A stretch of 64,000 nt of DNA from a virus (Duplodnaviria; Caudoviricetes): IMG/VR virus record IMGVR_UViG_3300031519_004326, positions 8,380-72,379 of that record. The stretch is one strand, 5' to 3'. Below the pieces are notes generated by a model, which ran no database searches, was not told the origin of the DNA, and was given only the letters and a program-made list of their open reading frames with translations. Numbering within the stretch: position 1 is the first letter of the stretch; every line of letters begins with the position of its first letter. Shown here one piece after another: positions 1 through 64,000 of the stretch. The position numbers were made by a program, and so were the translations under genes.

Positions 1-2
1 TC

Positions 3-161
3 AGTTATATAGGAATACATATAGTGTTTGAGAAAGATGCAAAGAAAAGCATTCCTTTAATTTGGGAGAAAGGCGGATTACTTCACAAGCTACTTAATCC
101 TAGAGACTACGAAGTTTTTGATAAGTCTAAAATTAAATATAGAGATGGAGATAACACTTGA
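3..161 (+). CDS. 3' end of a hypothetical protein (starts before the window)
   Basis: Open frame from position 3 (SYIGIHIVFEK...RDGDNT) to TGA 159-161, overlapping the TTG start of the next ORF. Confidence 0.5.
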   Translation, partial: SYIGIHIVFEKDAKKSIPLIWEKGGLLHKLLNPRDYEVFDKSKIKYRDGDNT

Positions 162-406
162 AAAAATTTATATACTTCCTTAAATGGAACTTCACTGATA
201 TGCAACCGTTTACAAAGCGATACATTGCATATTTTACAGCAGGTATAATTGCTGCATTTATATTCGGTGGACAATCTGGTGCATTTTTTATTGCACCGCT
301 ATTAATGTTTATTGACTTTACTGTAGATATGGTTAGTTCACGTTATAAAGAATTTACAAAAGAACAACAAGACCTTATTGACACTTTATCAGAAAGTAAA
401 AAGTAA
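158..406 (+). CDS. hypothetical membrane protein
   Basis: 82 aa, hydrophobic IAYFTAGIIAAFIFGG...FFIAPLLMFIDF; coupled to both neighbours. Confidence 0.65.
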   Translation: MKKFIYFLKWNFTDMQPFTKRYIAYFTAGIIAAFIFGGQSGAFFIAPLLMFIDFTVDMVSSRYKEFTKEQQDLIDTLSESKK

Positions 407-594
407 TGAGTATGAACCACGATGCGAAACCTAAAGACGATGAACTAGAACGAATGAAGGCAGAGTTTCTTGCTAAAGGTGGTGAGATTACTAAAGGCAA
501 AACAAAACCTATGCCTCCAGAACTCGGGATTAGTAACAGCAGTTGGAATAATAAACTAACTAAAGCTGAGAAAGAAGCTAAAAACAGTAAGTGA
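406..594 (+). CDS. small hypothetical protein (EFLxxGGxI type)
   Basis: KAEFLAKGGEITK; similar motif in 30208-30399. Confidence 0.65.
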   Translation: MSMNHDAKPKDDELERMKAEFLAKGGEITKGKTKPMPPELGISNSSWNNKLTKAEKEAKNSK

Positions 595-632
595 TCTAAA
601 TATTTAATGGCACCCCTGCTTATGGAAATATC

Positions 633-661
633 TTGACATTTGCTAACTAATGCTATATAAT
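633..661 (+). promoter_or_regulatory. sigma70-type promoter for the topoisomerase genes
   Basis: TTGACA (633-638), 17 nt, TATAAT (656-661). Confidence 0.85.
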
Positions 662-692
662 GTACATATAACACAAACAAGGGCAGACATTA

Positions 693-2483: not shown

Positions 2484-2486
2484 AGA

Positions 2487-3815: not shown

Positions 3816-3842
3816 TGCTGTAACACTTCTTTAGTTAAACTG

Positions 3843-3849: not shown

Positions 3850-3854
3850 GTTAT

Positions 3855-4958: not shown

Positions 4959-4999
4959 ACCTGTAACTTTACGTAACACCCGACTGCCATAAATACAGT

Positions 5000-6395: not shown

Positions 6396-6446
6396 TTGGC
6401 GTCACCCCTTCTAACTCTGCCGCCCATACAATTATTAAAACAGGAG
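6396..6446 (+). ncRNA. candidate riboswitch-like H-type pseudoknot in the queD 5' UTR
   Basis: GGCG/CGCC stem; loop CUUCU complementary to SD AGGAG; A-rich linker; not a canonical preQ1-I match. Confidence 0.3.
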
Positions 6447-6452
6447 ATAATA

Positions 6453-6902
6453 ATGGGGAAATATTTAAGCACAAAACACTACGGACACAACATTGGTCTT
6501 TCGGCAGTATTCCGTCAACCTAATGCAGATCATTCACACTGTCATCTATTACACGGTTACAGTTTAGCATTTACATTTAAGTTTGGATGTACCGAACTAG
6601 ATCATAAAAACTGGGCTGTAGACTTTGGAGGTCTTAAACCTTTAAAGAAATGGCTAGAAGACAACTTTGATCACAAGACAGCAATTGACAAAGATGATCC
6701 GTACTTAGATAAGTTTATGGAACTACAAGAACTTGACCTAGCAGAAATTGTTGTTATGGATGGTGTCGGTGCAGAGAAGTTTGCAGAACACGCATTTAAC
6801 TTTGCAGATAAACTAGTGCGCGAAATAAGCAATAATCGTTGTTATTGCGTAAGTGCAGAATGTGCAGAACACGGAGCAAACTCAGCGATATACGAGGTGT
6901 AA
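6453..6902 (+). CDS. queD: 6-carboxy-5,6,7,8-tetrahydropterin synthase (QueD/PTPS, T-fold)
   Basis: HCHLLHGYS, VDFGGLKPLK, FDHK, GAEKFAE, EHGANSA; start chosen at ATG 6453 after AGGAG. Confidence 0.85.
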   Translation: MGKYLSTKHYGHNIGLSAVFRQPNADHSHCHLLHGYSLAFTFKFGCTELDHKNWAVDFGGLKPLKKWLEDNFDHKTAIDKDDPYLDKFMELQELDLAEIVVMDGVGAEKFAEHAFNFADKLVREISNNRCYCVSAECAEHGANSAIYEV

Positions 6903-8581: not shown

Positions 8582-9718
8582 ATGAATGATTTGAAGTTTA
8601 CAACTTGCGGCGACTATGTTAACGACCAACAAACTATACAACGTATAGGTTTTGCTTGTAAATATATGCACCCAGATCAAACACAGAAGAAAAAGATACT
8701 TGAAGAGATTCAGCGGCCGCTAAATACTCGTAGTACAACAGTACAGTGGCTTAACCGTCAGACTCGCGAAGTTGCAGAGCAACGACTGTGGGATATTATG
8801 GTACACAATATACAAGCGTACTATAACTTGATTGAATATGTAGGGAGTTTACCTAATGAATTACGAATGGTTCGTCTTGGCAGTGACGTACTTCCTGTAT
8901 ATACTCAGCGTGACTGGGCTTATTATTGGCAGCAGGCTGATGTTATTGCGTATGCGGAAACACACTTCGCAAAAGTCGGTGAGCTTGCAAGAACCCTCGA
9001 TGTCCGACTATCGATGCACCCAGGCCAATTTACTGTACTTGCGAGCGACAACGCCGACATTGTAGATAGGAGCATAGAAGAATTTGAATATCACACCGAT
9101 GTCATCCGCTATATGGGTTACGGCAGACAGTTCCAAGACTTTAAGTGCAACGTACATATATCAGGCCGCAATGGTCCAGCAGGTATCAAAGCCTCCCTCA
9201 AGCGGTTATCGCAAGAAGCGCGAAACGTTATCACAATCGAGAATGACGAAAACAAATGGGGCATCGCAGACAGCCTTGAACTTGCAGACGACCTCGCACT
9301 TGTCCTCGACGTACACCATCACTGGTGCAGAGAAGGTGAATACATACTACCCACCGACGATAGATTTAAACGCATAGTTGATAGCTGGCGTGGTGTTCGT
9401 CCTGCAATGCATTATAGCTACAGCAGAGACACAGCATTACCAGAAGGCTTTGCACACGACAGTATGCTACACTTTCCAGACTTGCTAGAAGCAGGACACA
9501 AGAAAGGCAAACTACGGGCGCACAGTGATTGGTATCCTAACGCACAAGTAAATGATTGGGCACTGAGCTTCTTGCCTTACACCGATATTATGTGTGAGAG
9601 CAAGTGTAAGAACTTAGCAAGTATAGAACTGTATAAATATTATAAAGGAAACGAATATGAATTACCTAGCGAAAATGTACGGACGCAGCAAGCCGACACC
9701 AGAGAGCTCGTCCTCTGA
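8582..9718 (+). CDS. uvsE: UV-damage endonuclease (UvsE/UVDE)
   Basis: IGFACKY, RLGSD, RLSMHPGQF, HISG, IENDE, LDVHHH, HYS, AHSD, DIMCESKCK. Confidence 0.93.
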   Translation: MNDLKFTTCGDYVNDQQTIQRIGFACKYMHPDQTQKKKILEEIQRPLNTRSTTVQWLNRQTREVAEQRLWDIMVHNIQAYYNLIEYVGSLPNELRMVRLGSDVLPVYTQRDWAYYWQQADVIAYAETHFAKVGELARTLDVRLSMHPGQFTVLASDNADIVDRSIEEFEYHTDVIRYMGYGRQFQDFKCNVHISGRNGPAGIKASLKRLSQEARNVITIENDENKWGIADSLELADDLALVLDVHHHWCREGEYILPTDDRFKRIVDSWRGVRPAMHYSYSRDTALPEGFAHDSMLHFPDLLEAGHKKGKLRAHSDWYPNAQVNDWALSFLPYTDIMCESKCKNLASIELYKYYKGNEYELPSENVRTQQADTRELVL

Positions 9719-11342: not shown

Positions 11343-14300
11343 ATGGCTAAGAAAGAAATTAACATCGGTGTTGAAGGAAACGACGGAACAGGCGATAGTA
11401 TACGCGAGTCGTTTCGTAAAACGAATGAAAACTTTAACGAACTTTATGCTGTAATTGGCGAAGGTGGACAAATTGGCCTTACTGATTTAAGTGGAGTAGC
11501 AATTGACAGTTTTGAAAACTTTCCAAGTACAGATTCAGCTCCGGTACTAGCAGGTATTAATAACGATACACAAGGTAGTCAATTAGAATTTTTTAGACTT
11601 GTTAGTGATAATTTTGTTGATCCGGCAATTGATGATAGTATTGCATTTGATGTGTCAAGAACTGATACTGACGGACGTCCTGTTATTGTTGTTAAATCTG
11701 TAAAAAGTTCTGTTTCAAGTGATCCTAATCCAACACTAGCAGGTAACTTAAACTTATCTGGCAAAATTGCATACAACACTGCAAGTTCTGCACTATGGAA
11801 ACAACTAGCTGAAGATGACGGATTTACTGAAGATGACGTTCTTATTGATAAAGCATTTGCTGATGCAACTTATCTAAAATCAACAGGTTCGGGAACAGGT
11901 TCGCAACTACGAGTACGCACAGAAGGCGATGTTAACATCGAAGATTATGCATACACTATTGCTAGTTACGATGCTAGTGGTAGGATAGTTATTAACGATA
12001 GATACCAAAGCGGCGTTCTTATTGTTGGTGACGGACACGGTCTTGATACAGCAGCAAACGGAGCTCCGTTTGCATATTCTACTACCGGCACTAGTGCTGT
12101 AGATACTAGTATATCTCCGAGTAGAACACTTAATGATATTACAGAATTTCCAGAAAGTAAGTTCTTTATAAGAGTTGTCGATAGTACAACACTAAGTTTA
12201 CACATAACAGAAGCTGATGCAAAAGCAGGTGCTAATGTACTTAATGCAGCTGGCGGCAGTGGCGTACAGGCATTAACAGATTTTTTCTATCAACCAGACG
12301 ACTTATCAGGTAAGTTTTTAGCTAATGAAGCTATTCCAAGACAAAGTGCTGTTCGTAGACAAGGCGATCAAATGGACGGCGCTTTATATCTAAAAGATCA
12401 TCCAGGTGAACTTGCTGGTGTAGGCACTCCAAACGGCTTAGAAGATTTACAAGCAGCTACAAAATTTTATGTAGACAACACTAGTTTTGCTTCTAACATT
12501 AATATATTTGTAAGTACTTCAGGTGACGATACACAGGCAAGTACACCGGCAGGAAAAGAAGGTAGATCACTTGCATATGCATATAAGTCAGTTAATGCTG
12601 CGGCAAGAAAAGCTGAAGAAATTGTTATTGCAAGCAGAGTTGAGCCTGGCCCGTATATGCAGACAATTAAGTACGGTGTAAACGATGCTAGTCTTGTACC
12701 TGCAAAAGTTTACAGCGCAGTGTTCGATGCTGCACTTAAAGCCGACTATGGCGCACAGACTGAAAAGTTTAATCTTCTTATTAATCAAAACTTAGACTTT
12801 GTTGTAGCAGAAACTATTGATTGGGTAACAGCTCAAATTACAGCAGCGAACGCTGATATAACACTTACTCCAGATGATGACGAATATATTTGGAAAAACT
12901 TTGCATACAATGAAGAAACGTGTGCAAGAGATTTAAGATTAATTATTGGTGCTGTAAGACTTGATACATTGTCAGGATTAACTGCAAACAAGCTATCAAG
13001 AAATGCAGGTATTAGATACTATAGTAATTCAAGTGGCAGACTAGCAGTAACAGCACAGTTACCGCAAACAGTTGCTACAATTAATAAAGCAAAAGAATTA
13101 GTTACTAGTTATGTTTTAACAAATGATGCTTATCCTAATCCATTAAACTCTGACTTCAGTCAATATTTTGATGTTGGATTGGTTGATGCACCTAGTGCAG
13201 CAGTTGACAGATTTGAATCGTTGGTCGGTAACATTGTTAGTATTATGACAAACGGATTGCCAGCATATGATGCAATTGACTTGAACGAAGGTGCTCCGTA
13301 TGTTATCAAAATTACCAATGGCGGTAATGATAGTGTATGGCAAGGTAAAGCATCTAATACAGATTTAATTCCAGGTAAGGTTATTACAGGATCACGTAGT
13401 GGTGCAATTGGACGTATTGTATCGTATGATAGAGATCAAAACGATGGTACTAATACAGATGTTATAGAACTTATTTTAGAAGAACCAATTGAATTCTTAA
13501 TAGACAATGCCGGTAGAGATATTCAAAACACCGAAGTTGCAAATGCACTTGGTGATGTATTAGAATATGGTAATAGAGTTAGTGAAAAACAAATTGCAAT
13601 AAAAATTGAGTCAGGTATCTATTACGAAGACTATCCAATTAAAGTTTCATCACAAGTATCAATTGTTGGTGACGAAATGAGACGTAGTATTATACGTCCA
13701 AAAAATCGTGTATCGCAATCAAAATGGGCAGACACTTATTTCTATCGTGACAAGTATTTTGATGGATTAACACTACACAATAACACAGTAACATATGAAA
13801 ACGAAGCAACACTTTCACTTGCTGGCGGAGTACTAAATGCATATATAGGTGATATATTAACACAAGCAAATAGTTTCTCATATAACGAAGCTAAATGTCG
13901 TCGAGATCTTGATTACATCTTAACACAAGCCGGATTTGATATTACTCTTGGAACAAACTATAATGCAGTAACACAAGGTCTTGCATATCAAAGAGCAAGT
14001 GGTGCAGTTGTACAAGCAAGTCAGCTTTCACAAGAATTAGCAGCAGTTGGATTTGCAGGAAATTTAGTTGCACAACTTACTGAAGTAGCTGATAACTCTA
14101 CTACATTATCACGTTCATCAGCATACTTTGCCGAAGTACTTGATATTATTGAAAACGGTACAGTAGACACTGAAAATTCTGCAAATAGTTTAATATTCCC
14201 AGATGATGCAAGTTTTGATAGCAACTTAGTTGCTGCAAGAGATAAGCTACAAGCAAACAGAGCATTCTTAAAAGCAGAAGTAATTGCTCACATAACAAAT

Positions 14301-17300
14301 AATACTAGTCCTCCAGCAGGTTGGGATACTAGTTTACTTAATTTACACGTTGGCTTTTGGACAGATGCATTAACATATGATGTTTTATACGGTGGTAATG
14401 ACGCCAGTACAACACAAGCAAGATTGTACTTCACAGGTGGTGCACCAACAGGCGGAACAATAAATCTTAGTGCTGCACAACAAACTGTAGTTGTCGGAGC
14501 TGTTAATCACTTACAAAGCATTATTAGTAATATAGTTACTGGTGTTGCAATTACTAAGGCAACAGGAAACTCAGCAAGTCAAATTACATCAGGCTCAAAT
14601 GCATCAGCATCACAGGGTTCTACTATAAATGCTAATCTTGCAATTATAAAAACTGCTGTATCAGGACAAAGTGATAGTACTTTAGGTACACCTACACTAC
14701 CAAGTGTAACCTTTGCAGCACAATCTCTAAGAGATGCCAAAGGTGATATCGAAGCAAATCTACTATCAGGTGATGCTGCGGTTAATATTGTCGACAGAAC
14801 AATAGAATTTATTGATAGCAACTCTGGTATTAGAGCAACAGTATTAGAAAATGTTACAAATGCAACGTCAGTTGCTATTAGATACAGCGATGGATACAAT
14901 CCAGCAGGTGCTGATGTTAGTGCAAGTTCGCAGTTTAACTTCAACGACGATGTTGTATTAAATGGCGTTACGCAAACATCATTAAAAGTAACAAGTCAAG
15001 ATACGACTAGAACAATTGATTTTGATATGGGCTGGCATTATGCTTCAGACTCTACAAAACCTATTAACACTTCTTCAGCAACTAGTATTAATAACATAGG
15101 TCTTAGAGATCAAGCTGCTGAATTAATGCGTCAAAATAAAATTAATATTCAAGACGAAGTATATTCTTGGATGGACGAACAAGCCACAGCAGCTCAAGCA
15201 ACTGGATTTGGCACGTGGGCTCAGGTTACTTTAGAATTAGCTGGTACTGTTGCTGTTGTCAAAGGCGAAACAATAACACAAACAACTACAGGAGCGAGTG
15301 GTGTTGTTAAAGAAGCACCAATTAATGCTGGTGGTCAAACAACTGTTATACTAGTATCACCGTCATCAGCCTTTAGTCTTGCTAATGCAATGACAGGGTC
15401 TGTAAGTGGTACATTAGGAGTTGGTAGTGTTCCGGTTTCTGCAACAGTTGGTAAATTTACCTTTACTACTAAGTGTTATAGAGACATTGGTTACATTGTA
15501 GATGCTCTTGCAAATGACTTACTTAAAGGACGTAATGAAGATTCAATGGAAGTACAGGGATTGTACTACGAAGGTGCTGTTGAAACTGGACAAGAAGAAA
15601 TTACAACACAAGCAATTAGTCATATTAAATCTATTGCTGAATCACTATTAAATATTGCTGCGCCGCAAGCACCAGCAGGATCTACACTGACTTGGAAGCT
15701 AGGCTATCCGGCGGCAGAAGCAGGAGCAAGTGGTGTTGTAACTAACTTAATTGATACTATTGTATATGCATTTAATCCTGAATACAACGCTCCTAAAAAT
15801 AACAGAGAAATGGATGTGTTCTTAATGAATGATGCTACAATTATACGTAATTGTACAGTTCAAGGACACGGCGGATTTATGACAGTACTTGATCCGAATG
15901 GACAAATTCTTACTAAATCACCGTACATTCAAACTGGTTCAAGTTTTGCACAATCAGCTAACAAGCAAGCATTTAGAGGTGGTATGTTTGTTGACGGATT
16001 TAACGGCAATATGCCACTCGAAATTGTTGAAGTAAAGAACGGTGATCCGTTTAGATTGTATGCAAGAAGTAAAAGATCGCAAGTACAAGTTAATGGCGTC
16101 GGAGTAGGACACGGATTATTTACAAGACGTCCGGAATTACCAGCACCGTTTTATGTTAACGGCGTTAGATATCAAGTTAATGCTATTAGTGCTTACAACA
16201 GTACACTAGGAACTTGTGAACTTATCCTAGATAAAAACTCAGGAACAAAAGACGGTAACGAAAATGGTGAAGGTTGGTTAGGACCAGTAACTAATTATAC
16301 ACTAGTAGGTGGTGTTAGAACTCCAGTATATGGCCCAGCAACAAATTATCCAACAATACTACAAACTGCTGGTAACAGATCGCAGCTAGGAAATGACTTT
16401 ACACAAATTAACGACCTAGGCTATGGTTTACTTGTTACTAACACAGGTTTATCAGAGATGGTTGGTATGTTCACATACTACTGTCACGCTGCATATTATG
16501 CAAACAATGGTTCTGAAATTAGATCCGTAGGTGGTTCAAATGCTTATGGTAACTTTGGACTTGTTGCAGCAGGCAGTGATCCTAACGAAGTTGCACAAAC
16601 TGGTACACTAGCATACAATACTGCACAAACAGCAAAGGTATACAGAAATGACGGCGGGCAGTTTTATGCAGAAGCAGAACAAAATTATGTATATGTTTAC
16701 GATACAGACTTTACACCATTACCTGAAGGTGAAATTGATATCACCTTTACTAATAGAAAAGCATTAATATCGTTTACTGGTACGAACACTGTTAATCTTA
16801 CAGGACACGGTTATAAAACTGGTCAAAAGATTACTATTTCAGACACTGCTGGTGTTACTGGGTTAAATGACGATCACTATATTACAGCAGTTGATGCAAA
16901 CTCCTTTACATTGTTCAGTGATGCTGCACTAAGTTCAGCAAGAAGTTTCACAGGAAGCCTTTCAACACTTGGTACTGCGTACCCAGCAGACGAAGAAGGC
17001 ACTGATATAAGAAAATTTGAAGTTGTAAATGTTATTCCAGCAGTTATTGAAGATGGTATTCCGGCTGTTAATCAACAAGAATTTACTCTATCAAGTGGAA
17101 TTACTGCATACTATGGAGATACTGTAACTCAACAAACTTCCGGAGCAGTTGGTACAGTTGTTAGACCACAACGTACAGCAGATGTTGATGGAAATGTTGT
17201 TGGCGGTACAACATTGTTTGTTACACAGCCAGACGGCGCAACAGCATTTAATACTACTAATGCAATTAAAGTTACAGATGTGTACGAAGGTACTGACTCT

Positions 17301-20300
17301 ACAGAATTTACAGATGCTGTAACTATATCTACAATTGATAGTACAGCTGATACTAGTGGCTTGCCTCTAAAAGGCGGCAATGGTGCTGTTTGGAAACTTA
17401 CATTCTCAAACCAAACTACTGATAATACTAGTGCAACAGGCGGATTACTTTATAAACTATACGGTGGTGAACGTGTTGTAGTTAGACAACGTGCTAAACT
17501 AACACTTGAAAATATTGAGTCTGTACCAATTCGTCCATCAACTGCGGTTGTGTTTGCTGAATCTTCAAAAGTTTATAGATCATTAAACTTTGACAGAGCA
17601 ACTATTAGTAACTGGAACAGTACAGCAGATGCAGAAATGCCAGCAGGATTTAATACACTAACGTTTGATAACAATTATCAATATATCCTTAGTACAGTAA
17701 GTTATGACAGATACTCTGCTAATGTACTATTAGAACTAGGTGCTGCTGTTAGTGTTACTAAGGGTGACATTATTACCCAAGGTAGTGCAAGCGGCGTTGC
17801 TACAGAAACTGTTGTAGGAACTACTACAATATATGTAGGTGGTTGGAACGGAACATCATATACAGCAGTATCGGGTGGTGACATAAGCATTGCTGGAGTT
17901 GCAGCAGCTGGATCACAACCAAGTGCAGTAACAGAATTTAGTGCATCTAGCACGTTTGGTAGCACAGCAGGTGATACACTTATTGCAATAACATCTCCAA
18001 TTACTGATCCAGACGGTTTAAACAGATTAAAAAATGCTGATATGATCTTTGGTTGGAAAGACAGAGTACACGTAATAAAAGCATATCACGATGGTGCAGG
18101 AACTGCTACAGGAGCGCCAGCAGGTAGTTCACTAGTAACAGGATTTGCATATTTAGAAATTGACTCAACTCCGTTAGTAAATAAAAATACACAATCAAGT
18201 CCAACACCTCCAGGAACAGGTATTGCTCGTCCTCTACGCTTAGGTGGTGAGATTGGTCAAGTAGTATTAAGTATTGGTACACAGAGTGGTGAGTCTGCAG
18301 AAATTACTGTTAATATTTCACTTAACAGAGCAACAGGACACGACTTTAGTAACATTGGTACTGGTGGATTTAACACAAGTAACTATCCAAACATTATCTT
18401 TGGACAGCCTGCAGAATCAAAAGCCGAAGCATACACCAACGAAGACATTGCTGAAAAATCTCAAGTTTGGGAAAAAGGCAAAGGGCGTGTGTTTGTTATG
18501 TCAACAGACGAAGACGGATTCTTTAGAGTTGGTAAGTTCTTTGAAGTTGACCAAGGTACTGGTACAGTTAAGTTTGCAGCGCAAATTAATATCTCAGGAC
18601 TAGACGGACTTGGATTTAGAGATGGTGAAACAATTAATAAATTCACTGGCGATAGCGGTATGTCACCAATTGATAATAGTACTGTTCCAACATCATATGC
18701 TGTTGAACAATACCTAGACAGGCGTTTAGGTTTTGATAGAAATATGAATGCTAAGACAGCAATATTAGGTGACGGTTTCCTACCACAAAAGAATCCACTA
18801 CTTACACAAACACTTGATGTAAATGGCAATCCTGATCATACTCTTAATATGGTTAGTGGTCGAGTTGTTCAATTAGGCGATCCAGTTCAAGACTTAGATG
18901 CTGCTAACAAACAGTATGTTGATAAGCGTGTTTTTGCTAACGATGAAATTCAAGAACTTAGAGATATCGAACTTAACAATACTAGCTTTGAAAACGAGTA
19001 TGGTAAAAACGATATGATAGTTCTTACTGGTAACAAGCGTGTTTATGTTAAACAAACAACTGGTAACCCAGATGATTGGAGAGTTGGTAATTTAGTTACA
19101 GGTGTTGCAACAGACACCGCAGCATATATTGAAGACTTAGAAGCCAAGACACTTGATAATGGGGAAGAAATTTGGATACTATCTTACAAACCATTACAAA
19201 TTACAAGTGTAACAACTAGTGGTAATAACGGCAATCTTGATGCACAAAGAGGCTATAAACTTGTACAGTTGAATAGTGGTGCAACTGGTGAGATATTATG
19301 GTCACAGGGCCAAAGTAGTACCAACGAATCAAGATCCAAAACACAAGGTAACCAGTTTAAATTAATTAATGTTACTGGCACATTTACTACAAATACAGCT
19401 GATACACTTTCTGTTTTAAACTTAGTAAATGCTGATGCAACTGAGACAGCTAGTATATATCCATTAGCTGTTACAGTTCAAGGGTTGCAAGATTTTGACA
19501 ACGAGAAAATTGAAGACACTAATGGTGCATATGGTGATACTACAGGCGGCTTTGACGGTGCTCCAGTTACTACAACATTAGAATTTGGTAACGCAAGTGA
19601 AGCAAATAGTACAGCTGATGACGGAGCTCCAGGTACTGCAACAAGAAGTGATATTAACATTGAAGTTGAAAGAGTACGAGCAACACAAAATAATACTACT
19701 GGTGACATTACTGATCCAGGAAGTGTTAAAGTTAATCTACAATTGCAGGATGAGGCAATTGTAAATACTGATGTTAATAACTCAGCAGATATTGCGCAAA
19801 GCAAATTGTTAATGAATAACGCTCCAGTACTTGCAAACTCAGACTCACTAGACGATGGAAGTACATCAGGACAACGTACAAAACAAGCAAATCAAGGTTT
19901 AGCAGCATTTGACTCAAGTGCGTTTGCTGAAGATCAAGTATGGACTTTAATTGGTACTGATGCGCAAGCATTTGTATCAGCATTATCAGTTGATGACATT
20001 ATTACACAGAACAGTGGTACTAAAGTTGCATATGTAGATGCGATTATTAACAGTTCTAATCCATATCAAATTAGAGTAAGAACTGCAAGTAGTTTTGTAA
20101 TTGGTAACGCAGGTGTAAATAGACTTACAAGAATTACTGTAAACGAAGGCGATTATACTAAAAATGCAGCAGCACAGAGCTTAACAACAGTTAGTGCAGT
20201 TTTAAATACTGGCTTTATTAATATTAAAGACAGAGGTATTACTTTTGATAAGATACAAGATTTACCAGAAAAAACTGTAATTGGTCGTGCAGACATTGAC

Positions 20301-43285: not shown

Positions 43286-43778
43286 ATCACCAGATCCGTG
43301 GTTACAGAAAAAAGTTGAACCATTTGACTTTGATTCGAACGATGCTGACACTATAAGTAAGGAAATGGTCGAGCTTATGACCACTTCAGGAGGCATTGGC
43401 CTAAGTGCTAATCAAGTAGGACTAGATGCACAAATATTTGTATTAAAACCGCATTTATTAGAAGACAACAATCCGCTTACTATAATTAACCCTGAACTAG
43501 TAAGTGTAACAGTTAACTACGAAGATATGCCGGAAGGATGTTTAAGTCATCCTGATTTATATTTAAAAGTTAAACGTCCACGCGGATTGGTTGCAAAGTA
43601 TCTTGACATTAACGCAAAAGAGTGTAAAATAGAACTATACGATATAGATGCAAGATGTTTTTTACACGAGTATGATCATCTTCAAGGTATAGAATTTACT
43701 GATAGAGTGTCACGTCTTAAAATAGATATGGCAAAGAAAAAACAAAGAAAATTACAGAGGAATAAGATAAATGGTTGA
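43272..43778 (+). CDS. def: peptide deformylase
   Basis: GIGLSANQ, EGCLS, HEYDH. Confidence 0.95.
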   Translation: MHLIKSPDPWLQKKVEPFDFDSNDADTISKEMVELMTTSGGIGLSANQVGLDAQIFVLKPHLLEDNNPLTIINPELVSVTVNYEDMPEGCLSHPDLYLKVKRPRGLVAKYLDINAKECKIELYDIDARCFLHEYDHLQGIEFTDRVSRLKIDMAKKKQRKLQRNKING

Positions 43779-53659: not shown

Positions 53660-56329
53660 ATGCCATACGTAGATGCGATGTTTGATCGCGATCAGGATAT
53701 TATTCGTGCCGTTGAACGCAAGGACGGAAAACGACACTTCCACGAATATCAAGCAAAATATACATTTTATTATAAAGACCCTAAGGGCAAATACAAAAGC
53801 GTTTATGGTGATCCTTTAAGTCGTATTGTGTGCAAAAACACAAAAGACTTCCGCAAAGAAGTTGCTATTAACAGAGACAAAATACTGTTTGAAAGCGACA
53901 TTAATCCTATCTTCCAATGTTTAAGTGAAAACTATCTTAACCAAGACGCACCTAAATTGAACATTGCGTTCTTCGATATTGAGACTGATTTTGATCCAGA
54001 GAGAGGCTTTGCTGATCCTAGTGATCCGTTTATGCCTATTACAAGTATCTCTGTATATCTACAGTGGTTAGACACTATGGTGTGTATTGCTGTACCTCCA
54101 AAGACACTTACTATGGAGCAAGCACGTAAAGAAGTCGAAGGCATAGACAATGTAATGCTAGTTGAAAAAGAAAGTGAAATGATTGATACTTTCTTAACGT
54201 TAATTGAAGACAGTGACGTACTAAGTGGTTGGAACAGTGAAGGTTATGATATTCCGTATACTGTAAACAGAACTGCTAGAGTACTAAGCAAAGATGACAC
54301 ACGTAGATTCTGCTTATGGGGACAACTTCCTAAGAAGCGTATGTACGAAAAGTTTGGCAAGGAAAGTCAAACATTTGATCTAGTAGGGCGTGTACACTTA
54401 GACAGTCTTAATTTATATCGCAAATACACATATGAAGAACGCCATAGTTATCGTCTAGATGCTATTGGTGAGATTGAAGTAGGTGAGAACAAAGTTGCGT
54501 ACGAAGGTACGCTAGATCAGTTATACAATCAAGACTTCCGTAAGTTTATTGAATATAACATTCAAGATACTGCATTGCTTGACAAACTAGACAAGAAGCT
54601 ACGATTTATTGACTTGTCTAATACTATTGCACACGAGAACACTGTTCTTATTCAAACTACAATGGGTGCTGTTGCTGTTACGGAGCAAGGTATTATTAAC
54701 GAAGCACATCATAGAGGCTTACAAGTTCCTAATCGCAAACAGCGTGATGAGGAAAACACACAAGCAGCCGGTGCATATGTTGCGTTTCCTAAGAAAGGTT
54801 TGCACAAATGGATTGCTTCAATGGATTTGAACTCACTGTATCCTTCAGTGATTCGTGCATTAAATATGGCTCCGGAAACTGTAATAGGACAAATACGTCC
54901 TGTGATTAGTGATGCTCGTGTACACGAAGATATGACTTTAAAGAAAAAGAGCTTTGCTGGTAGTTGGGAAGGACGTTTTAGTACAGAAGAATACGAAGCA
55001 GTTATGGAGCAAAAACGTGACGTTGCATTAAGTATTGATTGGGAAGACGGGCGTAGTGACGTTCTAAGTGGTGCTGAAATTTATCAGCTAGTGTTTGATA
55101 GTAATATGCCTTGGATGCTTAGTGCAAACGGTACAATCTTTACAACAGAGTTTGAAGGTGTTATTCCAGGTATCTTAAAGCGTTGGTATGCTGAACGTAA
55201 AGAATTACAGAAAAAACTAAAGAAAGCAAAAGACGCAGGCAATGCTGTAGAGATTGAGTATTGGGACAAGCGACAGCTAGTTAAGAAGATTTTGCTTAAC
55301 AGTTTGTATGGTGCTATTCTTAATCCAGGTTGTAGATTCTTTGACAAACGTATTGGACAGAGTACAACACTTACTGGACGTACTATTGTTAAACATATGA
55401 GTGCAGAAGTTAACAACGTTATTACAGGCACATATGATCACGTAGGTAAGTCAATGATCTACGGCGACACTGACTCTTGTTATTTTAGTGCTTGGCCAAT
55501 ACTTAAAGATGATGTTAACAGCGGAAAGCTGGAATGGTCAAAAGAAAAGTGCATTACACTTATGGATCAAGTGTGTGAACAAGCAAATACAACTTTTCCA
55601 GACTTTATGATGAAGGCATTTCATTGTCCAAAGAGCAGGTCAGATGTTATTGCGGCAGGACGTGAAATCATTGCACAGTCGGGATTGTTTATTACTAAGA
55701 AGCGTTATGCGGCTCTAGTAATTGACAACGAAGGATTTAGAACAGATATTGACGGTAAGGCTGGTAAAGTTAAAGCAATGGGCTTAGACTTGCGTAGATC
55801 AGATACGCCTGTGTTTATGCAAGAGTTTTTAAGTGAACTTTTGCTTATGGTACTTACAGATAAGCCGCAAAGTGATGTGCTTGAACGTATCACAGAGTTC
55901 CGTCAACAATTCCACGAACGGCCTGGTTATGAGAAAGGTAGTCCGAAACGTGCAAACAAAGTCGGACACTATCGACGCTTAGAAGAAAAACAAGGCAAGG
56001 CAAATATGCCGGGCCACGTAAGGGCAAGCATTAACTGGAATACACTAAAACGTATGAACGGCGACAAATATTCGCAAGAGATCGTTGACGGTATGAAAGT
56101 TATTGTTTGTAAATTAAAACAGAATCCGCTGGGATATACAAGTGTTGCATATCCTACAGATGAGATGCGTATCCCGCAGTGGTTCAAAGAACTACCGTTT
56201 GATGATGCAGCTATGGCGGAGACAATTATTGATAACAAACTAGACAACTTAATTGGTGTGCTTAACTATCCGTTACAAGATACCAAGCGACACAATACGT
56301 TTACGAGTTTGTTTGATTTCGGAGAATAA
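53660..56329 (+). CDS. family B DNA polymerase (T4 gp43-like)
   Basis: FFDIET exonuclease, MDLNSLYPS, KILLNSLYG, YGDTDS, KKRYA; no intein or intron. Confidence 0.97.
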   Translation: MPYVDAMFDRDQDIIRAVERKDGKRHFHEYQAKYTFYYKDPKGKYKSVYGDPLSRIVCKNTKDFRKEVAINRDKILFESDINPIFQCLSENYLNQDAPKLNIAFFDIETDFDPERGFADPSDPFMPITSISVYLQWLDTMVCIAVPPKTLTMEQARKEVEGIDNVMLVEKESEMIDTFLTLIEDSDVLSGWNSEGYDIPYTVNRTARVLSKDDTRRFCLWGQLPKKRMYEKFGKESQTFDLVGRVHLDSLNLYRKYTYEERHSYRLDAIGEIEVGENKVAYEGTLDQLYNQDFRKFIEYNIQDTALLDKLDKKLRFIDLSNTIAHENTVLIQTTMGAVAVTEQGIINEAHHRGLQVPNRKQRDEENTQAAGAYVAFPKKGLHKWIASMDLNSLYPSVIRALNMAPETVIGQIRPVISDARVHEDMTLKKKSFAGSWEGRFSTEEYEAVMEQKRDVALSIDWEDGRSDVLSGAEIYQLVFDSNMPWMLSANGTIFTTEFEGVIPGILKRWYAERKELQKKLKKAKDAGNAVEIEYWDKRQLVKKILLNSLYGAILNPGCRFFDKRIGQSTTLTGRTIVKHMSAEVNNVITGTYDHVGKSMIYGDTDSCYFSAWPILKDDVNSGKLEWSKEKCITLMDQVCEQANTTFPDFMMKAFHCPKSRSDVIAAGREIIAQSGLFITKKRYAALVIDNEGFRTDIDGKAGKVKAMGLDLRRSDTPVFMQEFLSELLLMVLTDKPQSDVLERITEFRQQFHERPGYEKGSPKRANKVGHYRRLEEKQGKANMPGHVRASINWNTLKRMNGDKYSQEIVDGMKVIVCKLKQNPLGYTSVAYPTDEMRIPQWFKELPFDDAAMAETIIDNKLDNLIGVLNYPLQDTKRHNTFTSLFDFGE

Positions 56330-58530: not shown

Positions 58531-60156
58531 ATGAACAAAGACCTAACAACAGCGCAACAAGATTACGCACATTTCTTACCTGCACTTAGTGGCTTCTATG
58601 CAACTTATGTGGGCAAGCAACGCTATCCTGATCCTGTCGACGGTCCTTACGTTCCTGACAACCGTATTCCAAGTAACTTTCAAAACAATGTCGAAAGTTT
58701 AAACTATCTTAATGCACAAGAAGGGGCATTCACATATAAGTGGTGCCTTTATAGTGCAGGACACGCTGACTTAGATACAACTAAAATTGTACCTAAAGAA
58801 GATATGGTTCGGAATAGAGATAGAGAAAATACTTGGTTGCTAGGCGACAGCGGAGGCTTCCAGATTGGTAAGGGTGTTTGGGAAGGTGATTGGAAAGATC
58901 CTAATTGTCCTAAAGCACAAAAGAAACGTGACGGAGTGTTACGTTGGATGGATGCATATATGGACTACGGAATGATACTTGATATTCCGGCGTGGGTTGC
59001 ACGTTCACCAGCAGGTGCCAAGGCAACTGGTATAAGTACGTATCAAGAAGCAGTAGTAGCAACACGTATTAACAACGACTATTGGATGAAACATAGAACA
59101 GGTGCTTGTAAGTTATTAAACGTATTGCAGGGTGAGAATCACGCAGACGCAGATGACTGGTATGAGCAAATGAAAGACTATTGTGATCCAGTTAAGTATC
59201 CTGACAAACACTTTAATGGTTGGTCAATGGGTGGGCAGAATATGTGCGATGTACACTTAGTACTCAAACGTATTGTTGCATTGCACTATGACGGGCTATT
59301 ACAAAGCGGTATACACGATGTAATGCACTTCTTAGGCACAAGTAAACTAGAGTGGGCTTGCTTGCTAACAGACGTACAGCGGGCTATACGCAAGTACTAT
59401 AACCCCACTATGATGCTTACATTTGATTGTGCAAGTCCGTTCTTAGCTACTGCTAATGGACAAGTATACACGTCAGTTGAAACACCGGATAGAGGTAAGT
59501 GGACATATCGAATGGTTCCTAGTGTAGACGAACTAAAGTATGCATCTGATACACGTACATTTAAAGATGCAACACTACAAGACGGAATCTTTAAAACCTT
59601 CGAAGACTCGCCATTAAGTGACGGACTATTAGTTAATGACATTTGTACATATAAAAAGGGTGATCGTAATAAAATTGGAACACCTAAAGTAAGTGCAGGC
59701 GAAGTTGAACTAGATAAAAATGATGATCCTGTGCTTGACGAAAACAAACAACCAATTGTACGTAAGAAAGATTCAACAAGTTGGGATAGTTTTAGTTATG
59801 CTATTCAAATGGGTCATAACGTATGGACACACATTAATGCTGTACAAGAAGCAAATAGACAGTACGATGCCGGTGTTATACCTAAGATGCTTGTACAAGA
59901 GCAGTTTGATAGAGTAATGTTTAGAGATGTTGTAGAAGAAATATTTTCAAAGACAACACGAGAAGAGTCATTAGAAACTATTGAAAAGTATACAAAGTTC
60001 TGGATGGCTATTCCGGGTACTAGAGGTGCTATTGGTAAAAAGACTGTAAACAGTTCAACATTCTTTGATGCACTATTTGATGTCGAAGCTCCAACTGTAA
60101 TTGAAGACGAGCTAGATGAAACTAAGTTAGAGGAACTCGAGGATGAGCAACTATGA
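58531..60156 (+). CDS. dpdA: TGT/DpdA-family 7-deazaguanine transglycosylase
   Basis: LGDSGGFQ, MILDIP, VLQG, GWSMGG, MHFLG, TFDCASP, GHN; no CxCxxC zinc site of tRNA TGT. Confidence 0.8.
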   Translation: MNKDLTTAQQDYAHFLPALSGFYATYVGKQRYPDPVDGPYVPDNRIPSNFQNNVESLNYLNAQEGAFTYKWCLYSAGHADLDTTKIVPKEDMVRNRDRENTWLLGDSGGFQIGKGVWEGDWKDPNCPKAQKKRDGVLRWMDAYMDYGMILDIPAWVARSPAGAKATGISTYQEAVVATRINNDYWMKHRTGACKLLNVLQGENHADADDWYEQMKDYCDPVKYPDKHFNGWSMGGQNMCDVHLVLKRIVALHYDGLLQSGIHDVMHFLGTSKLEWACLLTDVQRAIRKYYNPTMMLTFDCASPFLATANGQVYTSVETPDRGKWTYRMVPSVDELKYASDTRTFKDATLQDGIFKTFEDSPLSDGLLVNDICTYKKGDRNKIGTPKVSAGEVELDKNDDPVLDENKQPIVRKKDSTSWDSFSYAIQMGHNVWTHINAVQEANRQYDAGVIPKMLVQEQFDRVMFRDVVEEIFSKTTREESLETIEKYTKFWMAIPGTRGAIGKKTVNSSTFFDALFDVEAPTVIEDELDETKLEELEDEQL

Positions 60157-60879: not shown

Positions 60880-60885
60880 AGTAAT

Positions 60886-61323: not shown

Positions 61324-61339
61324 AAGAGAGTAAACTACA

Positions 61340-61546
61340 ATGGCAAATAACTTCCCTCCTGTCAATAAGATTTTTGACGATTTGGATAAGTTCCGCGACT
61401 ACTGTCGCTTCGAAGGTAAACCGTTTAATGAAAAGGATCTTTATAAAAGAGATGCGTGGGTGTGGCAAGCCTATGGAAAGTACCAAAACTACCTTCGTGC
61501 AAAGGCTCGCAATGGCGGGCGTGATTTTCAACAACGGAGAACCTAA
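61340..61546 (+). CDS. hypothetical protein
   Basis: FRDYCRFEG...FNEKDLY; coupled to the GT. Confidence 0.7.
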   Translation: MANNFPPVNKIFDDLDKFRDYCRFEGKPFNEKDLYKRDAWVWQAYGKYQNYLRAKARNGGRDFQQRRT

Positions 61547-62602
61547 ATGACTATCTTCATCGTAGATATTGAAGCAGTAGATACACGTTACACTAAACAG
61601 TGGAAGGAGTATTTACCTAAACAACTGCAACGAGCTACGAGTGAAGATGTTGTTGTTATTAGTGGTGGCGAAACTCCTCAGGCAACTACGCCTGGGGCGT
61701 TTTTAAACTTTGGTGGTACAAACGTTTACAAGAGTAAACAACTAGAAACTATCGGTGAGATGTTCTGCAAAGGACAAGTAACCGATGGGGACTATTTCTT
61801 ATACACAGATGCTTGGAACCCTACTGTTATACAATTGAAGTATATGGCAGAACTTCTAGGTGTTGACATTAATATTGGCGGCTTATGGCACGCCGGTAGT
61901 TATGATCCACAAGACTTCTTAGGAAGACTTATAGGTGATAAACCTTGGGTACGTCACGCTGAAATGTCAATGTATGAATGTTATGATGATAACTTTTATG
62001 CTACTAACTATCATATTGACTTGTTTACAGATACTATGATGGACAATTATAATGTTGATATGGACAAAGCAATTAAAGTTGGCTGGCCTATGGAGTACCT
62101 AAAAGATAGTTTAATTAGCTACAAAGGTATGGAGAAGCGAGACTTGATCTTGTTTCCACACCGTGTTGCTCCTGAGAAGCAAGTTGAAATCTTTAGAGAC
62201 TTAGCACAGCGGTTGCCGCAATATGAGTTTGTTGTTTGTCAAGAACAAGAACTTACAAAGAACGAATATCACAACTTGCTAGGTGAAGCTAAGATGGTGT
62301 TTAGTGCTAACTTGCAAGAAACACTTGGTATTAGCTGGTATGAAGGAGCATTAGTTGATGCTATTCCTATGATGCCTAATAGACTAAGCTATAGTGAAAT
62401 GGCACTACCTGAGTTTTTATATCCAAGTGAATGGACTGAAAACTACGATACATACTTGCATCACAGAGACAAAGTAGTTGCACAAATTGTAAACTATATG
62501 GAAAACTTTGATGATTTACAAGTGTCTTTGGAAAAGCAACGCACAAAACTAAACAAAGAGTTTTTTAGTGGAGCAGCATTATATGACACAATCAAAAGAT
62601 AA
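61547..62602 (+). CDS. GT-B (GT4-like) glycosyltransferase resembling GTDC1/QTMAN
   Basis: ILFPHRVAPEKQ, QETLGISWYEG (ExxG..E), PNRLSYSEM..PEFLY. Confidence 0.8.
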   Translation: MTIFIVDIEAVDTRYTKQWKEYLPKQLQRATSEDVVVISGGETPQATTPGAFLNFGGTNVYKSKQLETIGEMFCKGQVTDGDYFLYTDAWNPTVIQLKYMAELLGVDINIGGLWHAGSYDPQDFLGRLIGDKPWVRHAEMSMYECYDDNFYATNYHIDLFTDTMMDNYNVDMDKAIKVGWPMEYLKDSLISYKGMEKRDLILFPHRVAPEKQVEIFRDLAQRLPQYEFVVCQEQELTKNEYHNLLGEAKMVFSANLQETLGISWYEGALVDAIPMMPNRLSYSEMALPEFLYPSEWTENYDTYLHHRDKVVAQIVNYMENFDDLQVSLEKQRTKLNKEFFSGAALYDTIKR

Positions 62603-63044
62603 CATCCTTTCTACCTTAATGGACAAACTTGGTAGACGTCGAGTAATTACAGAGCGCGACAGTAACGTGCCGTATCTTGTACGTTACTATTTGTTTTTAA
62701 AAGAACGAAAGAACTTTCCGTTTAATCTTACTTTACACAAAGTATTAGTAAGTGACGAGCCTACACTACACGATCATCCGTGGAGTTATGCTACATTTAT
62801 TATTGCAGGCGGCTACTATGAAAACACTCCTAAAGGGCGGTTTTGGAGAGGCCCAGGACACTTCCGTTATCGTAGTGCTAACGACTTACATTTCTTAGAA
62901 CTTGATAAAGATTCAAATGGAAATGAGATACCTTGTTGGAGTTTATTCTTTATGGGTAAAAAGGCAGGAGCCTGGGGCTTCTTAAAAAATGGTGTTTGGA
63001 TACACAACAAAAATTATTTGGCGAGAGGAGCAAAAGACGAATGA
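62583..63044 (+). CDS. cupin-fold metalloprotein
   Basis: LHDHPW, GGYYE, distal LHFLEL His. Confidence 0.75.
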   Translation: MTQSKDNILSTLMDKLGRRRVITERDSNVPYLVRYYLFLKERKNFPFNLTLHKVLVSDEPTLHDHPWSYATFIIAGGYYENTPKGRFWRGPGHFRYRSANDLHFLELDKDSNGNEIPCWSLFFMGKKAGAWGFLKNGVWIHNKNYLARGAKDE

Positions 63045-63379
63045 GTAGTGACACTATTACTTTGGATTATAATGTAAATCCGTATACTATTTCTACTGTT
63101 GATTCCGGCTATGTTACTACATCAAGTATAACTGGACTTAATAGTAATATATGGACTGATGATGTTTCTGCCAAACCTTCGATCAAGTGTGATGGCACTC
63201 TTGAAGTACAAGGTAGAGATGTTCTAGCAGAACTTGACGAAATGCGTGATGCACTAATGTTAATCAAGCGTGACGTAGATATGGAAGCTAAGTATCCTAA
63301 GCTAAAAGAACTAAAAGACGAGTATGCAAAGCAACTTGCAAAGTATGCTACATTTGACACAATTAAGGAATCAAAATGA
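63041..63379 (+). CDS. hypothetical protein
   Basis: ATG after GAGGAG; C-terminal EAKYPKLKELKDEY. Confidence 0.7.
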   Translation: MSSDTITLDYNVNPYTISTVDSGYVTTSSITGLNSNIWTDDVSAKPSIKCDGTLEVQGRDVLAELDEMRDALMLIKRDVDMEAKYPKLKELKDEYAKQLAKYATFDTIKESK

Positions 63380-63942
63380 TTAAAAAACATTATTATAGCT
63401 GGACTGATATTGAACGTATGTGTGTAAGCATTGTTAATCAAATGTACGCTGACAACTGGCGTCCTGATTACATTGTAGGTGTTACACGCGGTGGCAATGT
63501 ACCCGCTACTATTATTAGTAATATGACTGGCATTCGTTGCGAAGCACTTAAAGTAAGTTTGCGTGACGATGACATAGGCCCTGAAAGTAACTTGTGGATG
63601 AGCGAAGATGCATTTGGATATGTGAACGAAGACGAACGAGACGTAGCTGGATGTCGTTGGGACAATACAAAGCGAAAGAAAATCCTTATTGTAGACGATA
63701 TTAACGACACTGGTGCTACATTTAATTGGATCAAAGAAGACTGGCCAAAAAGTTGTTTGCCAATGGAACACGAGGGATGGAATACTGTTTGGAATGATGA
63801 AATTGCAAATGTAAGATTTGCTACACTAACTGAAAATTTATCTAGTAACTTTGACGGTGTAAGGTATACTTGTCACGAAGTTAACAAAGCAGAAGAAGAC
63901 ATTTGGTTAGTTTACCCTTGGGAGAATGTAAGTGAGTATTAA
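63376..63942 (+). CDS. type I purine phosphoribosyltransferase (Gpt/XGPRT-like)
   Basis: IVGVTRGG, ILIVDDINDTGAT PRPP loop, WLVYPWE. Confidence 0.88.
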   Translation: MIKKHYYSWTDIERMCVSIVNQMYADNWRPDYIVGVTRGGNVPATIISNMTGIRCEALKVSLRDDDIGPESNLWMSEDAFGYVNEDERDVAGCRWDNTKRKKILIVDDINDTGATFNWIKEDWPKSCLPMEHEGWNTVWNDEIANVRFATLTENLSSNFDGVRYTCHEVNKAEEDIWLVYPWENVSEY

Positions 63943-64000
63943 TACAAACAAAACATTTAACGATTTTACATACAGACCGTTACCAGAAGGCTTAACAATT
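63932..64000 (+). CDS. 5' end of a truncated ORF
   Basis: GTG start, MSINTNKTFNDFTYRPLPEGLTI, open to the window end. Confidence 0.45.
   Translation, partial: MSINTNKTFNDFTYRPLPEGLTI

Follow-up and report, generated by a model that had tools for sequence, protein, structure and literature searches.

NlaIII, FatI and CviAII are restriction-modification (R-M) enzymes specific for the tetranucleotide CATG, and chloroviruses carry R.CviAII. Loss of restriction sites is a textbook counter-defence of phages, as exemplified by Staphylococcus phages of the K/Twort group, which lack the 4-bp palindrome GATC over more than 100 kb, an absence attributed to a host 4-cutter of the Sau3AI type. For orthodox type II sites, about one in ten genomes of prokaryotic viruses has been reported to have lost all or almost all copies, avoidance being essentially confined to this class of sites (Rusinov 2018, PMC6286503), and CATG adenine methylation has been reported in marine Phycodnaviridae (PMC9516812).

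How does the DNA described here compare with these systems? Our window, the whole stretch of 64,000 bases that was analysed, belongs to a contig of 72,379 bp, which represents about 20% of the roughly 350-kb genome of an uncultured marine jumbo phage. This phage is distantly related to Rak2/Atu_ph07-like phages and is part of a clade that is abundant in the ocean. As in the non-temperate dsDNA phages of the 2018 survey, a short type II palindrome has been eliminated from a dsDNA phage of lytic type, and as in the K/Twort phages, one 4-bp palindrome, here CATG, is wholly absent. The mechanism would thus not be new. In contrast to the surveyed phages, however, this is a jumbo genome that has lost some 700–1,000 sites of a 4-bp word, and several all-or-none purges of different words stand side by side in one close clade. 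Whereas the K/Twort phages have a cultured host, a known enzyme and a group-wide trait, the CATG-free state is found in about 6–16% of the clade's sampled contigs. The missing word is precisely what the enzymes of the NlaIII, FatI and CviAII systems recognize, and such a purge implies an agent of their type.

An earlier note, made by reading the letters of the window, had reported the total absence of CATG over 64 kb against about 200 copies expected from base composition, and both statements hold on computation. The exact count is zero throughout the window (1..64000, no strand assigned), and the CATG-free DNA reaches across the entire contig, where a Markov model expects 198 copies (z = −14). 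Within the window, the zero-order expectation is 214 and the maximal-order Markov expectation 170, and dinucleotide-preserving shuffles contain 251 ± 14 copies, with a minimum far above zero. In 300 synonymous-codon shuffles within the 89 called genes, 133 ± 8.6 copies arise against none observed (z = −16.6), the lowest count being 100. Across the nulls, some 170–250 copies are expected and z lies at about −14 to −17; under all four models (133–251) the depletion exceeds what composition, Markov structure and codon usage predict. All other 4-bp palindromes occur in the window, including those that the note had listed as present, the next lowest being CGCG with an observed/expected ratio (O/E) of 0.68.

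The avoidance of CATG is purely synonymous and operates in all three reading frames. Ahead of a codon starting with G, histidine is encoded 89 times by CAC and never by CAT, although CAT is the commoner histidine codon elsewhere; NCA is found at none of 89 positions ahead of TG, and NNC at none of 212 ahead of ATG, so that the note's remarks on histidine codons and on ATG never following C proved accurate. The proteins have paid no price: CATG-bearing relatives have dipeptides able to encode CATG at the same frequency, and their overall protein composition matches that found here. Avoidance at the protein level, through fewer His-Val/Ala/Asp/Glu/Gly and X-Met pairs, was considered and dropped, since CATG-bearing relatives give the same low ratios, which are therefore not an effect of CATG. 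In principle, CATG could always be avoided synonymously (CAT-G by CAC-G, NCA-TG by NCT-, NCG- or NCC-TG, and NNC-ATG by NNT-ATG), and therefore all sites could go with the proteins unchanged.

At positions where the nearest CATG-bearing relatives have CATG, the replacements are TATG (13), CACG (8) and CGTG (4), with no case of CATA. This spectrum depends on the coding strand, unlike the outcome of a strand-symmetric mutation process. It bears directly on whether the absence could be an artefact of assembly or of miscalls at a modified motif, or the outcome of a mutational bias such as deamination of a methylated C in CATG. Modified motifs can give systematic miscalls, which is why such a cause was considered, but we found no support for it, and it can hardly be credited: the replacements are frame-dependent and synonymous, TATG is common while its reverse complement CATA is missing, and the proteins are intact and no less conserved than those of relatives. 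An artefact of a single sample or assembly is ruled out, because many separate metagenomes have yielded CATG-free contigs of this clade, and one of them (3300021335) contains both a CATG-free and a CATG-bearing contig.

Cultured relatives of the phage are distant and were recognized by protein searches; a 6-kb megablast query had no match among 50,697 phage records. The family B DNA polymerase (PolB; 53660..56329, + strand; PF00136/PF03104) is 42–48% identical to those of Sinorhizobium phage Phosso, Agrobacterium phage Atu_ph07 and the 121Q/PBECO4 group. An assignment as an N4-like podovirus, suggested by a giant open reading frame (ORF) and a length of about 72 kb, was dropped, as the record is a fragment of about 20% and its polymerase is T4/Rak2-like. 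The giant ORF (11343..23036, + strand) encodes a lineage-private protein of 3,897 residues without an informative Pfam match or, across 4.7 Mb of CATG-bearing relatives, a full-length homologue; it has weak, patchy similarity to giant proteins of the CATG-free contig G012 and may be a virion or host-recognition protein. No tRNA genes were found in the window.

To gather related sequences and trace the trait among them, we used PolB, for which IMG/VR contains at least 599 relatives, with a ClpB/ClpA-like AAA+ chaperone (ClpB; 43771..46032, + strand; PF07724, PF10431) as a second marker. CATG content in the clade is all-or-none. Among 348 related sequences, 34 (726 kb) hold 5 sites where 2,029 are expected, 313 centre on an O/E of 0.76, and not one falls between 0.05 and 0.2; of the best 80 PolB loci, 12 are CATG-free. 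The long CATG-free contigs include G004 (42 kb), G012 (55 kb) and G011 (86 kb), and G006, at 134 kb, has 2 sites against 430 expected. Three sequences that look intermediate are products of recombination or of chimeric assembly. In L057, the DNA up to about 4 kb matches a CATG-free lineage at 100% identity and that beyond 6 kb is foreign; L107 has both its sites within its last 230 bases, and in L171 the lone site is close to the end.

CATG-free lineages are scattered on the gene trees. By ClpB, L107 and L108, which are CATG-free, fall into one group with the window, and their sisters L109 and L110 retain 35 and 34 sites. The trait changes five times on both the protein and the DNA tree of PolB, at least four of these changes being forced by well-supported branches, and three times on the ClpB tree. 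This suggests repeated independent purges but does not prove them, because an AU test on the PolB protein does not reject one common origin for all CATG-free lineages (p = 0.16). Once reached, the CATG-free state is actively maintained through heavy synonymous divergence. CATG-bearing pairs with 75–85% third-position identity have about 3.6 private CATG sites each per PolB gene, equally divergent CATG-free pairs lack such sites altogether, and the contig holds 495 synonymous one-step precursors of CATG. The long-term selection proposed in the note thus stands as maintenance, but not as a property of the clade, since the trait is lineage-specific.

Could the modification genes of the phage account for the loss? 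The note had linked it to a 'DpdA-like' protein and a glycosyltransferase. The gene in question (58531..60156, + strand) encodes a protein of 541 residues that has no match in Pfam, PHROG or PDB sequences, and the Pfam TGT model finds none in a six-frame translation. However, an invariant LGDSGGFQ motif (DSGGFQ-type) marks its family, and with an AlphaFold model (pLDDT 71), every one of the best 50 Foldseek matches listed is a tRNA-guanine transglycosylase (E about 1e-6, TM about 0.5). The product thus looks like an enzyme of the TGT fold, a prediction that fits a DNA as well as a tRNA substrate. A QueD-like 6-pyruvoyl-tetrahydropterin synthase of the 7-deazaguanine precursor pathway (6396..6902, + strand; phrog_2389, E = 2.8e-38) is present as a context gene, and FolE, QueE and QueC were not seen among the scanned proteins of this fragment of about 20% of the genome. 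Given a TGT-fold enzyme and a QueD-like gene, the DNA of the clade may be modified.

That CATG is avoided because such a transglycosylase or glycosyltransferase acts harmfully there, or because the modification fails at this word, would agree with the predicted fold, the motif and the QueD-like gene. The distribution of the cluster makes it highly improbable. The TGT-like gene occurs, clade-wide, at 38 CATG-bearing and 5 CATG-free loci, as do its PMM, clamp-like and glycosyltransferase-like neighbours; in G001 and G003, where CATG stands at an O/E of 0.65–0.69, gene and neighbours are 89–91% identical, and a protein 94% identical to that of the window occurs on a 354-kb contig. CATG avoidance therefore does not track the cluster, and lineages with the same cluster have purged other words. 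A modification that blocked restriction generally would make site avoidance needless, which counts against a role of restriction; if restriction is the cause, the clade's possible 7-deazaguanine modification does not render site avoidance unnecessary.

A further suggestion of the note, a phage-encoded nuclease specific for CATG, received no support. Here, CATG-free lineages would direct their own endonuclease against host or competitor DNA, with absence of the site in place of methylation as self-immunity. The all-or-none distribution is what a self-targeting nuclease would enforce, and protection by methylation is not evident, as neither Dam-type (PF02086) nor N4/N6 (PF01555) methylases are matched in fragments G000–G005. 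However, the ICEA/NlaIII-like family PF05315 likewise has no match in the five fragments searched with it (G000, G001, G003, G004 and G005), and in this respect the phage differs from the chloroviruses with their CviAII-type R-M. Moreover, no gene family is common to the independent CATG-free lineages (about 735 kb) yet absent from 4.7 Mb of CATG-bearing sequence. These CATG-free contigs cover about half of the genome map, and the negatives on gene tracking apply to that half; the other half leaves room for such a gene. Ten of the contig's 100 ORFs have no homologue in CATG-bearing relatives, and none of these is nuclease-like. The lineage-private ORFs include no recognizable nuclease; most resemble tail-fibre genes, as would be expected if the hosts differ.

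Individual candidates fared no better. The sole recognizable endonuclease in the window, the UV-damage endonuclease UvdE (8582..9718, + strand; PF03851, E = 3e-40), which had appeared as an 'endonuclease' of phrog_8420, is not a CATG enzyme and is also present in CATG-bearing relatives, at 77% identity in G003. A gene for a 327-residue cytidylyltransferase-like protein and one for a protein of 113 residues, found in the CATG-free G000 and G004 and not in G003, both occur at CATG-bearing loci as well. G006 has two private DUF6071 paralogues, one with a sub-threshold match to the ScaI endonuclease (E = 0.007), which would speak for a nuclease had the genes not been limited to G006 among the CATG-free lineages. 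A small family was found only in G006 and G011, and in no other CATG-free lineage. More generally, a genome with about 1,000 sites could not gain such a nuclease unless protected beforehand, and each further purge, of AGCT, GTAC, CTAG or GCGC, would call for another acquired nuclease. We therefore regard a nuclease of the phage's own as quite unlikely. Its most far-reaching form, in which the gene lies in the half of the roughly 350-kb genomes outside our contigs and shreds host and competing-phage DNA, with a different nuclease in each sister lineage, seems to us no more probable; if true, it would reveal a chlorovirus-like arsenal in bacteriophages and explain the strictness of the trait.

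These further purges are a feature of the clade. Across 345 related loci, 53 of the 57 flags for a strongly depleted 4-mer at a locus fall on palindromes, and other lineages have zero AGCT, GTAC, CTAG or GCGC, among them one free of GTAC (0 against 129 expected in 44 kb) and one free of CTAG (0 against 48). The palindromic hexamers GTGCAC, GCTAGC and AAGCTT are depleted across the clade. Both the tetranucleotide purges in sister lineages and this hexamer depletion support type II restriction as the cause. The selecting agent itself has never been observed, and the data on CATG tell us just that the word does strong harm, whichever strand or frame it falls in; another sequence-specific factor, be it a non-classical host defence or a phage signal for packaging, replication or transcription, could in principle act in this way. 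We hold this to be unlikely, as the avoided words are almost exclusively 4-bp palindromes that differ by lineage, the pattern of orthodox type II recognition to which published avoidance is essentially confined (PMC6286503), and as a signal internal to the phage should track a phage gene, which none does.

We thus favour restriction by the host, because the purge is synonymous, genome-wide, confined to lineages, maintained, and paralleled by purges of other palindromes in sisters. Most likely, the lineage keeps CATG eliminated because unmethylated CATG is cut by an orthodox type II enzyme of its host population, an isoschizomer of NlaIII, FatI or CviAII. A typical member of the clade would enter such a host with some 700–1,000 CATG sites per genome, each liable to be cut if the DNA is unmethylated, and every mutation removing a site would raise the odds of a successful infection. 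New sites, arising by mutation or by recombination with CATG-bearing relatives, would be removed by selection. Sister lineages that met hosts with other enzymes would have purged AGCT, GTAC, CTAG or GCGC in the same manner.

What sets this case apart is its scale and cleanness. A 4-bp word that should occur about a thousand times in each genome has vanished, hundreds of close relatives follow an all-or-none pattern, and neighbouring lineages have each erased a different palindrome. If host restriction is the cause, the missing word predicts the restriction system of the host strain and could be looked for among the methylated motifs in genomes of co-occurring bacteria; it would therefore be usable for assigning hosts to uncultured phages. 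CATG loss would also mark lineages that cannot freely exchange DNA, because imports from CATG-bearing relatives bring cut sites with them, and the clade would allow the splitting of phage populations by host defences to be studied in nature.

A host system of the NlaIII/CviAII type had also been among the causes listed in the note, and it is favoured by the synonymous, lineage-specific and maintained purge, but the host and its CATG-specific enzyme were not found by gene-homology leads. A scan of a genome collection with a cysteine-desulfurase-like gene returned matches of 21–30% identity to gut Firmicutes, the atlas and homologue searches with Pdf led to 'Pseudomonadota' or to variants from the phage clade itself, and literature searches on CATG systems in Rhodobacteraceae or on roseobacter jumbo phages turned up nothing usable. 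We infer a restriction enzyme, residing in the host, as the selecting agent, and a Rhodobacteraceae-like alphaproteobacterium as this host. The lead to the host comes from a single gene in another CATG-free lineage: the cytochrome oxidase subunit I of G006 is 80–84% identical to that of Rhodobacteraceae.

How far does the absence of CATG, claimed in the earlier note from reading the sequence alone, stand up to exact counting? The word occurs 0 times in the 64,000-base window and 0 times in the full 72,379-bp contig, against 133-251 expected copies in the window. The expectation is 214 from base composition, 251 +/- 14 from dinucleotide-preserving shuffles and 170 from a maximal-order Markov model (198 for the contig; z = -14), and it is 133 +/- 8.6 (minimum 100 in 300 shuffles; z = -16.6) when synonymous codons are shuffled inside 89 genes out of the 100 called ORFs, which render the stretch 95% coding and of which 88 lie on the + strand. 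After CATG, the lowest observed/expected ratio (O/E) is that of TCCC (0.43) among all tetranucleotides and that of CGCG (0.68) among the palindromes. The absence of CATG is fully confirmed as real and highly significant.

Codon-context tables of the window's genes show that CATG is avoided through synonymous choice in each of the three reading frames. As the first reading had it, histidine ahead of a G-starting codon is encoded by CAC and not by CAT (89 against 0 times), while elsewhere CAT is the commoner histidine codon; NCA precedes TG in 0 of 89 cases, A being the commonest third base (58%) ahead of other T-starting codons; and NNC precedes ATG in 0 of 212 cases, with C elsewhere at 24-28%. 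Avoidance at the protein level was considered, as CATG-capable dipeptides seemed slightly depleted, but CATG-bearing relatives have the same ratios, and the proteins are thus unaffected. Positions that read CATG in the nearest CATG-bearing relatives, loci L109 and L110, read TATG in the window 13 times, CACG 8 times, CGTG 4 times and CATA 0 times. Since TATG and CATA are reverse complements, the replacement asymmetry tracks the coding strand. A mutational process acting alike on both strands, deamination for instance, is thereby ruled out, and so is miscalling of bases at a modified motif.

The sequence belongs to a viral contig of IMG/VR that CheckV estimates as ~20% complete. The contig encodes T4-type topoisomerase II subunits, a clamp loader, thymidylate synthase, PhoH, a family B polymerase, a ClpB-like chaperone, DnaJ, peptide deformylase, IscU/NifU and UvdE, among others. 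Its polymerase shares 42-48% identity with the polymerases of jumbo myoviruses, namely Sinorhizobium phage Phosso, Agrobacterium phage Atu_ph07, a Vibrio jumbo phage and the 121Q/PBECO4 group, and IMG/VR relatives are as long as 357,559 bp, the length of G007, whose estimated completeness is 100%. Members of this clade are highly abundant: every marker gene drew at least about 600 matches. The window also carries auxiliary genes of host-like character, encoding IscU/NifU (E 4e-40), a candidate cysteine desulfurase (without a confirming family match), a ferredoxin-reductase-like protein, DnaJ and peptide deformylase (40319-40747, 35377-36564, 7715-8437, 42476-43285 and 43272-43778), several of which are missing from the syntenic relatives G003 and G004.

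How is the trait distributed among these relatives? From 345 loci fetched around five marker genes, together with eight longer contigs, we considered the 348 sequences with at least 10 expected CATG, some of which overlap one another. Below 0.05 of expectation lie 34 of the 348; together these span 726 kb, where 2,029 sites would be expected and 5 are present. The interval from 0.05 to 0.2 is empty, and the other 313 sequences form a single peak near 0.76. Among the longer contigs, CATG is observed 0 times against 100 expected in G004 (42 kb), 2 against 430 in G006 (134 kb), 0 against 220 in G011 (86 kb) and 0 against 143 in G012 (55 kb). In the CATG-bearing contigs G001 (200 kb) and G003 (83 kb), the latter syntenic with the window, O/E is 0.65-0.69 under the Markov model and 0.79-0.85 under codon shuffling, a mild depletion not beyond that of other palindromes, and in the complete G007 CATG is outside the five lowest tetranucleotides. 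CATG-free contigs are found around every marker (12/80, 5/79, 4/25, 5/80 and 5/79), and the purge is therefore genome-wide in those lineages. Apparent intermediates are few and all mosaics (L057, L107 and L171). Locus L057 (1-10181) matches the CATG-free loci L022 and L027 at 99.9-100% identity over positions 1,001-4,000 and lacks CATG in its first 6,018 bases; past 6 kb its best identity to any sequence drops to ~85% and CATG returns to normal density, the last 4.2 kb containing 17 sites. The changeover falls within the polymerase gene. In L107 and L171 the residual CATG sits at or near contig ends. The mosaics are either recombinants or assembly chimeras, and either way CATG status switches with ancestry.

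On the protein tree of the family B DNA polymerase (PolB; window 53660..56329), the trait has to change 5 times to account for the CATG-free lineages, and well-supported branches force at least 4 of these changes; 5 changes are needed on the PolB nucleotide tree and 3 on the tree of the ClpB chaperone. The window's lineage (with L001, L002, L107 and L108) has the CATG-bearing L109 and L110 as sisters, and over ~30 shared genes its contig is no nearer to CATG-free G004 than to CATG-bearing G003. A single clade of CATG-free lineages is not rejected by the AU test on PolB protein (p = 0.16), and repeated independent purging is thus suggested, though not proven; repetition is favoured in that, were recombination the source of the scatter on the gene trees, each allele from a CATG-bearing donor would have needed fresh purging. 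Maintenance of the CATG-free state is clear. At 75-85% third-position identity, pairs of CATG-bearing sequences have ~3.6 private CATG sites each per PolB gene, while CATG-free pairs have 0 in PolB and are CATG-free over their whole loci too, and 495 contig positions are one synonymous change away from CATG.

One proposed cause was that modification by a DpdA-like enzyme and its glycosyltransferase would be harmful at CATG. The protein in question (541 aa; window 58531-60156) has no match in Pfam, PHROG or PDB sequences. Its motif LGDSGGFQ is invariant in an alignment of 29 family members, and the top 50 Foldseek matches listed for its AlphaFold model (pLDDT 71) are all tRNA-guanine transglycosylases (TGTs; E ~1e-6, TM ~0.5). 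Together with a QueD-like gene (window 6396-6902), motif and model support its prediction as a TGT-superfamily enzyme. The gene adjoins a clamp-like gene, a phosphomannomutase and a glycosyltransferase-like gene, and with these neighbours and the QueD-like gene it may constitute a 7-deazaguanine modification system for DNA or RNA. Clustered at 90% identity, the family forms more than 7,000 clusters, and it occurs in ocean metagenomes. The gene and its neighbours are, however, present in 38 CATG-bearing as against 5 CATG-free loci, and CATG-bearing G001 and G003 carry the gene at 89-91% identity. The cluster thus does not track CATG loss, and the proposed link is rejected.

Could the CATG-free lineages instead encode a CATG nuclease of their own, as was also proposed, or a protective methylase? 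The sampled CATG-free contigs span about half of the reference genome map, which leaves such a gene some room; but the fragments searched gave no match to ICEA/NlaIII, Dam-type or N4/N6 methylase families, the sole recognisable endonuclease is UvdE, which CATG-bearing relatives have too, and no gene family is common to independent CATG-free lineages and missing from 4.7 Mb of CATG-bearing sequence. We regard this explanation, for nuclease and methylase alike, as unsupported and as having a small probability. Most lineage-private genes encode tail-fibre-like or giant proteins, and others are metabolic, a set that fits differences in host range. Apart from the giants, those of G011 and G012 are tail-fibre-like (Gly_rich_2, tail assembly chaperone and endosialidase chaperone). 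The window encodes a private giant of 3,897 aa (11343-23036) and G012 giants of 2,631 and 4,033 aa (L405:4245-12140 and the next ORF); their mutual similarity is merely patchy, and a domain search gave no informative match. Two small families are confined to CATG-free contigs. A DUF6071 paralogue pair is found in G006 only (L214:10452-11222, L216:9906-10628), one member with a sub-threshold ScaI-endonuclease match (E 0.007), and an unannotated small family is common to G011 (L400:10449-11240, L402:17867-18715) and G006 (L216:17493-18179); both are absent from the other CATG-free lineages.

CATG is not the only word purged. Palindromes make up 16/17 of the words flagged at O/E <0.2 in the first locus set, 21/21 of those flagged in the second and 16/19 of those at O/E <0.15 in the third. 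AGCT is absent from eight loci (L119, L121, L122, L155, L157, L166, L281 and L365) and near zero in three more; GTAC occurs 0 times against 129 expected in the 44-kb contig G010 (L219-L221, to which L164 also belongs), CTAG 0 times against 48 in L055 and against 15 in L283, and GCGC 0 times against 25 in L280. These lineages are sisters within the window's phage clade. The loss of different 4-bp palindromes in different sisters is the pattern expected of orthodox type II enzymes varying among host strains; site avoidance was essentially limited to such enzymes in a published survey, with complete or near-complete elimination in about one tenth of viral genomes (PMC6286503). Host restriction is favoured among the causes first offered. 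We consider it probable that CATG was lost as classical anti-restriction, in which a putative host type II enzyme would cut CATG and the phage would escape by loss of the sites. This would be an unusually clean case of an already known phenomenon, notable for the genome size, the strict all-or-none state and the parallel palindrome purges within a single abundant marine clade. Palindromic hexamers in the window's genome have a median O/E of 0.77 versus 1.00 for non-palindromes (p = 2.5e-7); over the whole contig GTGCAC (1 against 16 expected), GCTAGC (0 against 9.4) and AAGCTT (1 against 11.9) are nearly absent, and CATG-bearing G003 is equally short of them, which suggests older, clade-wide restriction pressures.

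As to the host, the nearest cultured relatives infect Alphaproteobacteria. CATG-free G006 carries genes for subunits II and I of cytochrome c oxidase (PF00116; PF00115, E 9e-159; L213:13989-14729 and L213:15234-16892), and its subunit I shares 80-84% identity with Rhodobacteraceae proteins, all named top matches coming from that family. By sequence similarity, this one lead points to a possible Rhodobacteraceae host. The same contig carries GAPDH, a Bmp-family ABC substrate-binding protein and a class II aminoacyl-tRNA-synthetase-like gene (L212:18338-19300, L213:10612-11712 and L213:9280-10176), and these, like the oxidase genes, are themselves CATG-free.
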